Below, one piece after another: positions 9,721 to 53,721 of a stretch of 64,000 bases of DNA. The stretch is taken from positions 142,600,001 to 142,664,000 of the forward strand of contig NC_042999.1 of NCBI RefSeq assembly GCF_006345805.1. Direction: 5' to 3'. The notes beneath the pieces are model-generated. The model saw nothing but the letters and a program-made list of their open reading frames with translations, was not told where the DNA came from and ran no database searches. This stretch comes from Octopus sinensis. Taxonomy: Eukaryota. How positions within the stretch are numbered: the first letter of the stretch is position 1; every line of letters starts with the position of its first letter. The position numbers were made by a program, and so were the translations under genes.

Positions 9721-9808
9721 CACTTTCCTGAGGAGAAGATTGCATTGTTTATACCATTTATTCTTTTGAATAGTATCAGTGGAATTTTCGAAACATGTGT
9801 CGAAAGTA
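9721..9808 (+). ncRNA. Minimal type-I hammerhead ribozyme motif in a PLE-type terminal repeat
   Basis: Stem I actttc/gaaagt, core CTGAGGA (9728), long stem II gaagatt...aattttc, GAAAC-atgt-GTC; homolog at 44273. Confidence 0.75.
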
Positions 9809-9880
9809 AAAATATTTGATTACACCTGCGTTAAACTCCATTTCTTTATTCATATATATATATATCATCATCATCATCAA

Positions 9881-10440
9881 GATTTTGTTAGCCGCTCTCC
9901 AGCCATCTATTTAAAACTATATACAGCTATGGTACGACCACACTTGGAATTCGCATCATCAGTTTGGAACCCCTATCTCGCTCAGAACATTGACCTTCTG
10001 GAATGTGTCCAGAGATGTGCAACCAAACGCATACCCTCCATCAGACACCTACCATATTCTGAGCGCCTTGTTTCCCTGGGCATGGATTCACTGAAGCTCC
10101 GGCATCTGGCGACGAACTTGGTAAACACCCACAAAGTTATCAACCACCTCACCAACAACAACACTGAACACCTTTTTGATCTCCATGTGTCTAACACACG
10201 TGGACATGCCTACAAAGTCAGAAAACAACACAGCTCCCATGACTTTCGGAAACATTTTTTCACACTCAGAGTTGCTGAAGCATGGAATAAACTGCCTGCA
10301 TCAGTTGTTGACTGCCATGACACTGCATCCTTTAAGGCTCTCATGCTTTCCGAAATCCGCCGAAACTACACCTGATTATATATACACTTTAGATGAGTTG
10401 TAGTGCACCTGAGCACTGTACACGATTATTATTATTATTC
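9881..10440 (+). mobile_element. CR1/L2-clade LINE 3' fragment (ORF 9779-10375, part)
   Basis: FVSRSPAIYLKLYTAMVRPHLEFASSVWNPY...; related to but diverged from the 4805-6095 copy. Confidence 0.92.
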
Positions 10441-11094
10441 ATTTTTCAAGCTGGCTTGGGGTGGACCAGTTGATGGGAACTGGCTAACCAGAGTGGGGCT
10501 AGCACAGAGGGATAGAGGAGCTGTACCATAGAAATGTAACAATAGTAACTTGGGTAGGTATAACTGTTGTAAGATGTCTCAGTAATATATTTTACATAAT
10601 GAAAACATTATCTGTAATAAGAACCCAATAAATGAACAGCCCAGTTAACTGTGAAACTCAGAGCAGACTGTTAACTTTCACATACACACACACACACAGA
10701 TAGATAGATAGATAGATAGATAGATAGATAGATAGATAGAGAGAGAGAGAGAGAGAGAGAAAGAGAAAGGTGTATGTATATACAAAAGAGAGAGATGCAT
10801 AAAAAAGAAATTCTGGCATTATGTAAAGGTGCATGTGTCTGTGGAATACTCAGTCACTGCTACAATATTATACAATGAGAAGGTAGTTTATTTCATCAAA
10901 CAACTGGAATACTCTTGATTAAAACCACAGGAGTATCCATTTAACTATTTAAAATCATACACACATACACACACATAACGATAATGAGTATGTGCATGCG
11001 TGTGTGTGTGTGTGGTGTGTGTGTGTGTGTGCGTGAGTGTGTGTGTGTTATATGTCTAGACGTGTACAACATATATAATCATGCACTTTTAATT

Positions 11095-11300
11095 ATACTT
11101 TTACTTGTTTCACTCATGGGACAGTGGCCATACTGATGCATTGCCTTGAAGAGTTTAGTAAAAACAAATCAACCCCGGTTATTTTTTGTTTTGAGTCTGC
11201 GATTTCCCTCACTAGTCTCTGTTGCTGAACTTCTAAGTTACCAGGATGTAAACAAACCAGCACAAGTTGTCAAGTGGTGCTGGGACAAACAGAAACACAT
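11095..11300 (-). mobile_element. SINE family B 3' half, decayed
   Basis: ttttacttgtttca...ctaagttaccaggatgtaaac matches the family B reverse complement. Confidence 0.7.
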
Positions 11301-11686
11301 ACACATATTTACATATATACATGCATACCTACGTACGTACGTACGTAAGTATGTACGTACGTACCTACCTACCTACCTACCTACCTACGTACGTACCTAC
11401 CTACCTACCTACCTACCTACCTACCTATCTACCTACCTACCTACCTCACTACCTACCTACATAACTACCTACCTACATACGTACCTACATACGTACCTAC
11501 GTACCTACCTACATACCTACCTACATACATACATACACTCATACATACATACATACACATACATAGATACATACATAGATACATACATACATACATACAT
11601 GCATATGTACATACATGTTTATCAATTGCGTAGGTTTACAAATACACACACACACGCACATGCATCCACACACATATATACACATA

Positions 11687-50296: not shown

Positions 50297-50490
50297 AAAC
50301 GTGCGTTTAAAAAGTATTCAACTTTATTTGTTCCCGCCATAATTAATACAACATGGGCAAAATCATTTGGATGTGAGGTTACGTCACCCTTCCTACACAA
50401 GGCTAAAAAACTTTCGCGCCGGTAGGCTGCGTCAGTTTATGGCTGTTACGCCTTGAGTACAGACGTCGGATACTTTCTGAATGCCCCTCG
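50297..50490. mobile_element. Decayed mariner-type MITE
   Basis: Right end gtcggatactttctgaatgcccctcg|TA; degenerate left end cgtttaaaaagtattcaac. Confidence 0.55.
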
Positions 50491-50766
50491 TATAAAACTT
50501 GGCTACCAAATTATCTAGCGCGAGTGATTGTCATCGGTGTTGACCATAAATTTACCTTCTGCGGTTTGTCCGATTTGTAAATCCAAATTCAAACACCGAA
50601 TAGATTCAGTCTAAGGTTACAGAGTAGAGCAGTAAGACACAAGGGAATGGAACACAATTCTGCAATGTAGTGACTATGTGTATTAATCCCATATTTGATT
50701 GACTAAAGTTCTACAGAGATTAAGAAATTTAACACACCTCTATGCTTATCAAAGCTATATCACACT

Positions 50767-52848
50767 CAGTGGCGGATCTACCATAACACTAATGAAGTTT
50801 AAACTCCAGGGCCACTAATTCCAGAGGGACCCCTCTGAAGCAACTTAATTTTTTCATTCTGTCGATAATTTCGTATTTGTATTTTGTCATGCAGATTGCT
50901 GTTACCAGTCTTAGTGGACATCATATCATACTCCTACGCAGAGTCTAAACACGCAGTGTCTAGACACGATTTGTTCACCTGCTGTTTCTGCTGGTGTGGA
51001 GTAGCATAAAAAACTTAAGTATAAACGACTCGCAGATAATTCGCTTTACTTGAATTATTTTGGAAACTTCGGCCCTGCCCATCCAGTTGTCAAATATATC
51101 TACTACTACATCAGCACGATAGAGATAAGAATTCTTATTTTCCTACCATTATTTAATGACCAATGAAAGGGTTTGCCTCCTAATTTTGGACTTACAATCT
51201 GTTCAGTAACAAAGCATTTTTGTTTTACTTTAAAAATTGTTTGAATATCACCTTGAAAAATTCTTCATTTATGACTATATATTAAGTTGTGGACCCTTTA
51301 CTTGATCAATCTGTCTCGCTGTAACTAATGAAAATATTACCCTAATTTTTTTTCACAGAGGTCTAGGCCCCAAGTGGAATAGCAATGTCTTCTAGAAAGT
51401 AATTAAGTAGATACCAGAAACGCCAGCTCAAGGAAAAGCAATCTAACGAAATTTCTAGGCGTCAAACATTATCAAACTATTTTACAATGTCAAATAAAAG
51501 TTTGTCATCACCTACAACTGAAACAAGCCATACAAGCACCAGTGAAATCAATGATAGGGAAGAAACCATGAGTGCTCTGTACCTAAAGTTGTTGACTATT
51601 TTGGCATCTTGCAGCAGCTGTATGTTTTCTTTTCTGAATCCCCTCGAAGATGGGGGATTTTTAACACACAGGGCAATCTAGCCTTTTCTCTAAAGAGCTT
51701 AAGTGTAACTAGATGGTCTGTACACTATTGCCTTCTGCTAGCATCTTTGCTTTCATTTGTTAAAGAACTACAAGAAAATTCAGATGACAGGAACGCACAC
51801 TAGGAATCAGTAGCAAAAGGTTTATGTGAATATATCACCTCAAATTATTCTGATGTTTCTAAATGCATTATTACAAAGAAATTTACAGATGGAACAAGTG
51901 ATAGGGCTTCTTGGAAAGGGGCTGAAAATTTAGAATAGAAGATCTAAATTAAGTCTATGACTGCTTGATAATCCAGTTAAGCAGGAGGATAGACCCATAT
52001 GAGCAGATTGCAAAAAGGTTCAAGTTTCTCTCAGAATTGACGAATAATTCAGAATTTGATGAGAACAGTATCAAACTTATGATATCATATTACAAAGACG
52101 ATATTGACCAAAAATTAATAAATGAATGTCATCAGTTCAAAGAGTATTTGCACCTTAGGAAATCCCGGAACACAGAAGAAAACACACCATCTAAAATACA
52201 ATGTACAGAAGTTCTTCAGCTTATTTATGAGCAACAGTTAATTGAAGTGTCCCCTAATGTGACCACTGCACATAAGCTGTACTTGACAATGCCTATCATG
52301 AGCTGTGAAGCAGAAAGGAGTTCCTCAAAGCTTTCCTTTGTAAAAAATAATTTCGGTCTACCATGACTGAAGAGCACTTAAATTCCTTATGTCTCTAGAA
52401 AAATGACATTGCAATGAAGCTATCATGACAAAACTATTGCTACAAAAAAACAGAAAAAAGAGTATTTTGTAATTTTCAGATGTATCTTAACGATGCATCA
52501 GGCATGTATATAACGCTTCCCTAATTTTCAACCCCCATAATTCTAAAATATAAGGCATAGCCTGGAAAATATTTGTTGTAATCTTCCATGGAACAACCAC
52601 ATCGACAAAGATATCGGTGATTACCCACATCTCGTTTCTGATGGGAAGAGGGCTCACTTTCAGACTCATTTTTAAGGAATCCACATCACAACTCTACCAT
52701 CTGGGCTATCAGGGCCTGAGGCTGGAGCTCCTTGCAAGGGCACGAAAATTTTTTTACCCTTGTTGGATGTTACCCTACTGTCGCTGGTTGTAAAGGGGCT
52801 CCCTTTAACATTTTAAGCTTCAGGGCCCCAATATTGTAGATCCGCCTG
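50767..52848 (+). mobile_element. Decayed, internally deleted hAT transposon
   Basis: TIRs cagtggcggatcta / tagatccgcctg; KSLSVTRWS; hAT dimerization motif PNVTTAHKLYLTMPIMSCEAERSSSKLSFVKN (ORF 51965-52366); TSD not recognisable. Confidence 0.85.
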
Positions 52849-53432
52849 GAATGGAGATCATGTTAAGAAGATAAACAATATTTGACCAGTATGAAAGGTA
52901 GGGAGGTATATCTACTTGGAAACTGTATTTATCAAATCATGATAGAATTGTATTATGACATGGTAAAATTTCTATCGCGTTTAAACTATCATTGACCCTT
53001 TCTTATACACATCGGAAGCATGTAGAGTTAAGCTGTTCATTAGATATATTATTTAGATCGTGATGGAAATATTATTTGATCAGTATTAATTCTAAATATA
53101 AATTATGAGTGGAAGACAAGTTGAGTTAATGAGAATTCCAAAGGGGAATAATCAATATAATTCCCTTAGGAAGATATTCTATTTTTGGAAAAAATAATTT
53201 TCTTAAGGGAATAAATATTTAAACTTTAAGATAATTGTAGTATGGTTGAGATAACTTTAGATAAATTTTTAAAATAAATGAAGAATAAATTATAGAATAA
53301 AACAAAAAATAATAAAAATAATTTTTAAATAATCAATTTTCGAAATTAAAAAAAAAACTAATAGCAATAATAATAACAATGACAGCAGTGACAATTATAA
53401 TAACAATGATAATTTAGATAAGTATAATAATT

Positions 53433-53721
53433 TGTTGTGTCTGGGGAGAATCATTTTCTTTTTGTGCCTTATTATGTAACACACTCACCGGTAAAATTTC
53501 CATTTTTCTTCTTATTTTTATGGTCCTAGAATTTTCGTTGCGTCTTGCAACCTTTTCAATAGTTTCGACTCTAAAACTATTCGAGTCAAAACTATCGAAA
53601 AGGTTGCAAGACGCAACGAAAATTTTAGGACAATAAAAATAAGAAAAAAAATGGAAATTTTACCAGTGAGTGTGTTATATAATAAGGCACAAAAAGAAAA
53701 TGACTCTCCCCAGACACAACA
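53433..53721. repeat. ~290-bp palindrome (~138-bp arms, 11-nt loop); each arm carries an HHR-like motif
   Basis: tgttgtgtctggggag...cgactc | gagtc...ctccccagacacaaca. Confidence 0.9.

Follow-up and report, generated by a model that had tools for sequence, protein, structure and literature searches.

The stretch of DNA analysed here, called the window, comprises 64,000 nucleotides of Octopus sinensis contig NC_042999.1 (positions 142600001-142664000; 35% G+C, microsatellite-rich, in a genome of 2.72 Gb). It contains twelve sites that a first-pass annotation had described as type-I hammerhead ribozyme motifs of short non-coding RNAs mobilised by Penelope-like elements (PLEs). Results of our analysis indicate that 11 of the 12 sites are genuine minimal type-I hammerhead motifs, one (25790) being doubtful, and that they represent 5'-truncated, often inverted ends of autonomous PLEs. 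The coordinates given in the annotation hold to within about 40 nt. We labelled the families F1 (9728 and 44279), F2a (13329), F2b (26082), F3 (27059), F4 (30548), F5 (41906, 42813, and 49113), and F6 (53559 and 53595), with site 25790 outside these families; labels such as L391 denote stretches fetched from the same genome. The motifs and the stubs that hold them are as follows.

9722..9807, +: F1 hammerhead, canonical core CTGAGGA, long stem II, palindromic helix III, H17 at 9801 (descriptor, self-comparison)
9699-9866: stub holding F1 motif 9728, (TA)n on both sides (same subfamily in locus L380)
13296..13335, -: F2a hammerhead, U6 core CTGTCGA; copy decayed in GAAA and stem II (family comparison)
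about 13215-13410: stub of the F2a motif between (TA)n
25784..25827, +: doubtful degenerate motif of U3-A8 type; a PLE GIY-YIG fragment lies about 0.9 kb upstream of it
26050..26088, -: F2b hammerhead, core CTGACGA; copy carrying A in place of G12 and one mismatch in stem II (family mostly U4C)
26841-26894: inverted piece of the F3 stub (self-comparison)
27053..27143, +: F3 hammerhead with long stem II and canonical core; additional A ahead of GAAA throughout the family; H17 at 27137
30507..30554, -: F4 hammerhead, canonical core CTGATGA, no loop III, H17 at 30513
30607..30767, -: F4 upstream part, with the B-box half of an RNA polymerase III (Pol III)-like module (about 30724-30767) and an internal (AAT)n
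41867..41912, -: F5 hammerhead, core CTGATGC, older lineage; left arm of inverted insertion 41713-42965
42305..42602, both strands: GIY-YIG C-terminus of the F5 element itself, insertion centre (tblastn, 58-60% identity, E 2e-19 and 3e-16)
42807..42852, +: F5 hammerhead, decayed (CTGATAA, stem II mismatch); right arm of insertion 41713-42965
44066-44123: inverted piece in the stub of F1 motif 44279 (self-comparison)
44273..44361, +: F1 hammerhead, canonical core CTGAAGA, H17 at 44355 (descriptor; family tied to a GIY-YIG open reading frame, ORF)
49074..49119, -: F5 hammerhead, A9C core of the young dominant lineage, H17 at 49080; stub 48889-49175
53523..53565, -: F6 hammerhead, U3-A8 core TTGAAAA, H17 at 53529; left arm of inverted insertion 53427-53780
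53589..53631, +: F6 hammerhead, copy with U4 changed to C; right arm of 53427-53780, followed by an ORF-start tail

A strict type-I descriptor finds three sites in the window (9728+, 44279+, and 30548-) vs. none in each of 20 local doublet shuffles, and the strict core with one mismatch finds nine vs. 0-4 in 10 shuffles; three of these nine (28024, 39150, and 47199) lie outside the annotated set and are chance-like. With a relaxed descriptor, which required G10.1, a stem II of 4 bp, and a stem I of 3 bp and permitted one core change or a U3-A8 core, eight window sites were found vs. 0-1 in 20 shuffles, and the frequency of the motifs is thus above the shuffled background, as had been expected. 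Elsewhere in the genome, 689,800 bases were scanned (200 kb adjoining the window and 490 kb at round-number positions), and here the relaxed descriptor gives 21 sites vs. 1-4 in three shuffles and the strict core nine vs. 0-1 in 10 shuffles. Helix III, previously noted as often palindromic, is self-complementary in 9 of the 14 looped hits, though the descriptor did not impose it.

The description of the sites as a dozen CTGANGA motifs stands as to their nature but not as to their core, since CTGANGA is present at just five of the 12 (9728, 44279, 26082, 27059, and 30548). The others read CTGTCGA (13329), CTGATGC (41906 and 49113), CTGATAA (42813), TTGAAAA (53559), TCGAAAA (53595), and TTGATAA (25790). 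Six sites with variant or decayed cores still fall in recognisable families, and four window copies (13329, 26082, 42813, and 53595) are decayed. The view that the motifs at 53526 and 53592 are core-less was dropped, as a U3-A8 core was found in them. Site 25790 is doubtful because its folding is hardly detectable (minimum free energy -0.6 kcal/mol, z +2.15). Single-strand folding of individual motifs is no better than that of shuffles (z from -2.4 to +2.2), as expected from the weakness of their stems. There is no hammerhead among the Rfam matches listed for the window (150 of 280), and RF00163 gives seven matches genome-wide among 74 scored candidates, none of them within the window; this model is ill-suited to these minimal forms.

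Self-comparison identified 41906 and 42813 as the two arms of one inverted insertion, and 53559 and 53595 likewise, so that the 12 sites appear to correspond to about 10 insertions from seven or eight families. This number agrees with the at least six families proposed at first. Not all of them are unrelated, however: 13329 and 26082 are homologous, and the families of 49113 and 53559 share an ORF-start tail.

Element families and their link to PLE reading frames

The genome was searched with the window copies of F5, F1, F3, and F4 and with patterns for F5, F2a, F2b, and F4, while F6 and 25790 were followed in the fetched loci only. In five families (F1, F2a, F3, F4, and F5), longer natural copies extend upstream into their own reverse transcriptase (RT) and/or GIY-YIG ORFs. 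For F5 (49113), 30 loci were fetched, one of them the window copy itself and the remaining 29 being 99% identical to it; they have common 3' ends in (TA)n and scattered 5' ends, and the longest copies run into RT, a cysteine linker, and GIY-YIG. In F5 locus L391, an inverted piece is followed by a pseudo-long terminal repeat (pLTR) with the motif and then by the ORF, and the tail consists of the first ORF codons; the domain order of RT and C-terminal GIY-YIG is visible in L391 and L147. The GIY-YIG ORF of F1 copies lies about 400-450 nt upstream of the motif, and a same-strand PLE match was obtained by tblastn in 9 of 28 upstream stretches (eight to the family's own endonuclease (EN) piece and one to that of another family). 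Copies of F2a reach the cysteine linker and GIY-YIG (Pfam E 0.001), with a PLE match by tblastn in 8 of 54 upstream stretches. In F3, a GIY-YIG ORF was reached more than 3 kb upstream in 3 of 18 loci after two extensions (L373, L378, and L387), and a natural ORF piece of F4 matches RVT_1 with E 2.5e-11. All RVT_1 and GIY-YIG Pfam matches concern natural pieces, and some are under the curated cut-off. Clade names for F1, F3, and F4 would be provisional ones, derived from their motifs. The 3' untranslated region (UTR) of F3, more than 3 kb long, is largely shared microsatellite-like sequence and may seed such sequence genome-wide.

The stubs begin at varying 5' positions, have two 3' ends and inverted pieces, and are flanked by (TA)n; 5' truncation, an inverted piece, a partial tandem forming the pLTR, a tail, and microsatellite targets were all observed. 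A pile-up of F3 5' ends was only apparent, being produced by a deletion in the reference copy. Copies of F2b (L301, L303, L308-L310, and the window copy at about 26157) often begin about 75 nt upstream of the motif, right after (TA)n, and this common start reflects either a short template or microhomology-guided truncation.

The first-pass annotation had regarded the motifs as parts of short non-autonomous RNAs mobilised by partner PLE lineages whose fragments lie in the window; such RNAs would be retrozyme- or SINE-like (SINE, short interspersed nuclear element) and would move in trans. Most copies are indeed 0.15-0.5 kb long and non-coding. However, five families are continuous with their own ORFs, and no tandem-repeat row covers any motif within the window. 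The PLE fragment at 42305 belongs to the F5 insertion itself. The window motifs thus differ from retrozymes in two respects: they do not form a head-to-tail array of 150-450 bp units with a hammerhead, and they are not non-coding units independent of an ORF. Outside the window, a few F4, F2a, and F5 pairs are direct repeats. Mobilisation in trans is unlikely to explain these families, and the one possible exception is the short form of F4, which is perhaps transcribed by Pol III.

In F4, the ORF stop is followed by a module with putative A and B boxes, which resemble the consensus and have tRNA-like spacing, then by an (AAT)n run and the motif. Among 30 ORF-selected loci, this succession was recognised by script in 24 and by reading in 28. 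In 40 module matches, counted with the ORF-selected loci excluded and inverted partners taken separately, 26 begin within -6 to +7 of the module start, 12 begin inside it, and two reach the ORF. This distribution and the head-to-tail F4 copies in L121 and L122 would fit a short template, and in Schistosoma the Sm-alpha elements are Pol III SINEs with hammerheads, in which the Pol III promoter lies beside the hammerhead (PMC6765202), an arrangement that the putative module of short F4 may parallel. On the other hand, ARAGORN found no tRNA in 21 of 21 F4 loci, Rfam gave no tRNA match in F4, and the pile-up is equally expected if RT stops at a structured site. Pol III transcription within the 3' UTR of the PLE itself could yield the short F4 as a by-product, a reading whose chance we put somewhat short of even, the alternative being an RT stop site. 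F4 as a free-standing tRNA SINE was dropped because the ORF lies directly upstream, and a tie of 30548 to the neighbouring remnant of a long interspersed nuclear element (LINE) of restriction-like endonuclease type was rejected because other F4 copies have unrelated flanks. No PLE-derived tRNA SINE was found in the literature searched.

Core variants and selection on the U6 motif

Copy numbers were determined as exact pattern matches and are lower bounds, with all reversed-pattern controls at 0; genome-wide they amount to 16,805 for F2a, 10,217 for F2b, 3,627 for F4, and 2,734 for F5. Core states were read from the first 100 matches listed per search, all on contig 1. In these matches position 6 of F2a is T in 99 of 100 and never A, with 47 T, 23 A, 17 C, and 13 G at N7; F2b has A6 in 100/100 and C4 in 67/100, and some of its T4 copies may have arisen by CpG decay; F5 has C at position 9 in 86, A in 13, and T in one, the A9 form giving 432 matches genome-wide. 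The core of F4 is canonical and that of F6 is U3-A8. In F3, an additional A precedes GAAA in nearly all of 48 displayed copies out of 54 collected. The standard core (CUGANGA or U3-A8 ... GAAA ... UH) holds family-wide in F1, F3, F4, F6, and the U4 third of F2b, while F2a and F5, in which A6 or A9 is replaced, are judged by sequence to be variants resembling minimal hammerhead ribozymes (min-HHRs) and not canonical members.

Conserved cores with some stem covariation, which the first-pass annotation had made a touchstone of its proposal, were found: 96% of cells in the stems of F2a and F2b are paired, with one compensatory pair, and in the F1 group 90.7% are paired, with four compensatory pairs; stem I covaries in both. 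Helix III is absent or palindromic in F1, F2a, F2b, F3, F4, and F6. In relatives of F1 (L156, L189, L287, and L372), the loop on stem II spans at least about 45 nt and the basal pairs covary; this long insert may have its own fold. At least a dozen more hammerhead families, many of them U3-A8 with palindromic helix III, occur elsewhere in the genome (L001, L004-L007, L041, L049, L068, L175, L181, L189, L202, L208, L219, and L249), which therefore holds far more hammerhead families than the window shows.

The U6 motif of F2a was aligned in 67 copies, 49 of them chosen by pattern and 18 not. Of its 36 columns 34 have a single state, and only N7 (four states) and H17 (47 A, 18 T, 1 C, and no G) vary, vs. 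71 of 138 polymorphic columns in the flanks. N7 and H17 are the positions left free in a hammerhead. Among the 18 unselected copies, 2 of 34 motif columns (N7 and H17 excluded) are polymorphic vs. 73 of 133 flank columns (Fisher p 6e-8). In a tree built from the flanks only, N7 changes 11 times, in subfamily blocks, and position 6 once, with flank columns averaging 4.1 changes, a value that is partly alignment noise in T-rich sequence. The ORFs of four of 10 F2a copies, compared with L229, have synonymous differences per site (pS) of 0.25-0.57 and a ratio of nonsynonymous to synonymous differences (pN/pS) of 0.22-0.36, the other six being closer and uninformative; in three of these four the U6 motif was detected downstream by script. 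The motifs of the four copies differ at 2-3 of 36 positions and their flanks at 15-38%. In contigs of four runs (four organisms), depth peaks over the F2a motif and N7 and H17 are the sole listed variants, which is weak support only, since the variant table omits N7 states present in the assembly. Taken together, these patterns indicate that the U6 motif is under purifying selection as RNA, in the manner expected of a hammerhead; the property selected may be cleavage or the fold alone.

Chance matching, or retention of the F2a block as a coding sequence or as a DNA promoter motif, was considered as well. Single copies fold like shuffles, one reading frame places N7 at the third position of a GTN codon, and PLE pLTRs hold promoters (PMC6765202). 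Nevertheless, the counts exceed those in shuffles and the reversed-pattern controls give nothing, helix III is self-complementary without having been so required, and stem I covaries. In the frame with N7 as the wobble base, one of six four-fold sites varies and a stop is read at H17 in most copies, and coding constraint on the block was rejected for this reason. The chance and coding readings are largely refuted, and we regard this group of explanations as very improbable.

The F5 tree, calculated with position 9 and the next base removed, with midpoint rooting, and leaving out 45 rows from BLAST-selected loci and three duplicate rows, places 27 C9 copies on one side of a branch nested among A9 copies, and one older C9 window copy lies outside this clade. 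The mean pairwise distance is 0.056 for C9 vs. 0.115 for A9, and both results point to A9C as derived and young in F5. The ORFs of two C9 sub-lineages differ with pS of about 0.12 and pN/pS of 0.25-0.37, which suggests that C9 masters kept transposing. The motifs of these sub-lineages differ at H17 alone (C to U), but their flanking UTR is also close (1-8%), and the H17-only difference is thus no demonstration of selection on the C9 motif.

These observations bear on the possibility that U6 and C9 motifs no longer cut and that their fold is kept for the binding of a PLE protein or for presentation of the RNA 3' end. Mutants of the U-turn are weak in vitro (PMC9901934, PMC3088659), and cleavage-dead mutants insert normally in vitro (PMC11167929). 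In addition, C9 arose once from A9 ancestors and, although younger, outnumbers A9 about five to one; loop II of F2a is conserved too; and U6 permits a G5-C15.2/U6-A15.1 mini-helix that would close the core. This mini-helix is likely only with U7 (P 0.98, vs. 0.06-0.56 with the other N7 states), however, and is for that reason not a conserved fold. Variation restricted to N7 and H17, with H17 never G, fits the cleavage-site rule, the sole subfamily-level change in the C9 motif is at H17, and A6C variants cleave with Mn2+ or with 1-10 mM Mg2+ (PMC7151607). Loss of cutting by the variant motifs is a tentative alternative. For the U6 family, residual assisted cleavage is slightly favoured, a non-catalytic fold is possible, and another constraint is quite unlikely.

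Other features of the window and the fetched loci

Three further PLE fragments were identified in the window.

23803..24836, +: broken PLE fragment with RT-thumb, cysteine linker, and GIY-YIG (tblastn with natural PLE ORF pieces)
55904..56080, -: PLE GIY-YIG fragment, no attached hammerhead seen (tblastn)
61162..61715, +: PLE GIY-YIG fragment of a different lineage, no attached hammerhead seen (tblastn E 2e-27)

PLE RT and GIY-YIG fragments are thus present, as had been stated, but the largest RT ORF, an open frame of 498 codons at 4465-5961 (+), is that of a LINE and not of a PLE (RVT_1, E 2e-25); judging from its motifs, we take it to be of the CR1/L2 type. Segments 7347-7579 and 9884-10439 are 3' fragments of copies related to this ORF. 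Non-LTR element remnants at about 30250-30450 (-) and 55000-55890 (-), presumably with restriction-like endonuclease motifs, adjoin (TAA)n runs. An internal (TTAGGG)n array (37498-37605) has an inverted repeat of about 280 bp on its two sides (37204-37869), and weak hAT dimerisation and helix-turn-helix matches at 51953-52366 and 57510-57875 are probably DNA transposon remnants. Among the fetched loci, L157 holds an LTR-retrotransposon-like element with open gag-like and pol-like frames (1679-5871) and L377 a tandem C2H2 zinc-finger ORF (about 3300-4100, minus-strand reading).

Relation to known elements and meaning of the variants

Large and diverse sets of single min-HHRs derived from truncated PLEs in metazoans, with opposite-strand pairs, the U3-A8 variant, and low dimer activity, were described by Cervera and De la Pena in 2014 (PMC4209133). 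The window motifs share with them the type I topology, the short stem I, G10.1-C11.1, an extra base after position 9, an absent or palindromic helix III, and the presence of many families per genome. While U3-A8 is the sole core change named in the available text of that report, U6, C9, and C4 are also found family-wide here, and neither the family-wide extra A before GAAA nor loops of some 45 nt and longer on stem II appear in it. The occurrence of many PLE hammerhead families per genome is thus already published, and the family-wide core substitutions appear to be new.

As in the EN+ PLE clades Penelope/Poseidon, Neptune, and Nematis described by Craig et al. in 2021 (PMC8557442), the elements studied here combine RT and C-terminal GIY-YIG with a pLTR, an inverted 5'-truncated piece, a tail, and (TA)n targets, and F2a and F5 carry the CX2-5CxxC linker described for Neptune and Nematis. 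The F3 3' UTR of more than 3 kb and the F4 Pol III-like module have no counterpart in the available parts of that paper. The 5' ends, inverted pieces, and (TA)n flanks of the stubs match its stub anatomy and that reported by Frangieh et al. in 2024 for the Anolis Poseidon element PAc (PMC11167929). PAc also resembles these elements in that its hammerhead sits in the pLTR close to where the ORF begins and in that two 3' ends give rise to a tail. In PAc, however, C3 and G8 are intact and cleavage, which requires protein, has been measured, while the hammerheads described here are known from sequence. Retrozymes likewise carry type I hammerheads in short repeats from PLE pLTRs (PMC7229834, bioRxiv 10.64898/2026.07.22.740005), but they form head-to-tail arrays that give circular RNAs (PMC7229834), in contrast to the dispersed single or inverted stubs of the window. 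The hammerhead is nearly universal in canonical PLE clades. It cleaves slowly in vitro, and in one in vitro system insertion does not require it, its mutants still being able to insert (PMC8557442, PMC11167929); its role for the PLE is considered an open question (PMC8557442).

Natural core variants include A6C, U4C, and U3-A8, of which A6C and U4C are slow yet active and concern rare phage or viroid cases (PMC3088659, PMC7151607). In contrast to the A6C cases, it is U, not C, that is fixed at position 6 here, and the family concerned numbers 16,805 copies or more. No A6U or A9C hammerhead was found in the literature searched, the key survey of PLE variants and the supplements being outside its coverage.

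The anatomy of the stubs and the continuity of the families with ORFs make it highly probable that the motifs are minimal type-I hammerheads of the 3' pLTRs of at least seven PLE families, left as truncated or inverted stubs and likely slow-cutting in master transcripts. Cutting would probably proceed slowly in tandem master transcripts, as dimers or aided by the element's own protein, and single stubs such as the window copies are predicted to be inert. According to published work on PLEs, RT would prime at a nicked AT-rich target, start near the RNA 3' end, and usually stop early. The hammerhead would be copied most often because it lies 50-200 nt from the RNA 3' end, where RT starts. In isolated ribozymes, U6, C9, and C4 would lower activity; we infer that master elements tolerate them since cleavage would be slow and assisted and insertion does not depend on it. 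Selection would still act on the fold and on the remaining core positions.

Several results weigh against this interpretation. Upstream tblastn reached no ORF in F2b (0/13) or F6 (0/1), and these two families are thus placed by homology, F6 as a probable sister autonomous family because the ORF start in its tail is homologous to the one in F5 (49113 family). Short non-autonomous templates could produce both the pile-up of F2b 5' ends at a fixed point, as judged by eye, and the F4 pile-up (26/40). The covariation is thin, and related sequences inflate the controls. Because helix III of F5 is non-palindromic, two A-A mismatches would arise in its dimer helix. Branch support for the C9 clade is only 80/77, and for the six F2a core columns that the pattern left free the comparison (0/6 vs. 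71/138) gives only p 0.03. Moreover, U6 and C9 may be dead: when a type III hammerhead was mutated pairwise, CUGA-turn mutants showed low activity (PMC9901934), and A6C cleaves slowly at low Mg2+ (PMC7151607).

A further reading, possible though on balance not the expected one, is that the U6 and possibly the C9 hammerheads are active, and that one PLE makes its own SINE from a Pol III module captured in its 3' UTR. On this reading, the A6 of the CUGA turn, held to be invariant, would have been exchanged and the new state retained by purifying selection while the family radiated, since a PLE protein or the dimer would take over the role of A6. If the U6 form is active, standard descriptors would miss a large share of animal hammerheads.

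With sister lineages that differ as A6/U6, A9/C9, and U4/C4, the genome of O. sinensis offers natural experiments on the hammerhead core, in which the non-standard form is the commoner one and the U6 form appears to be under selection. Selection on catalysis would widen the hammerhead consensus, while selection on the fold would show that a ribozyme fold can be kept without its chemistry.

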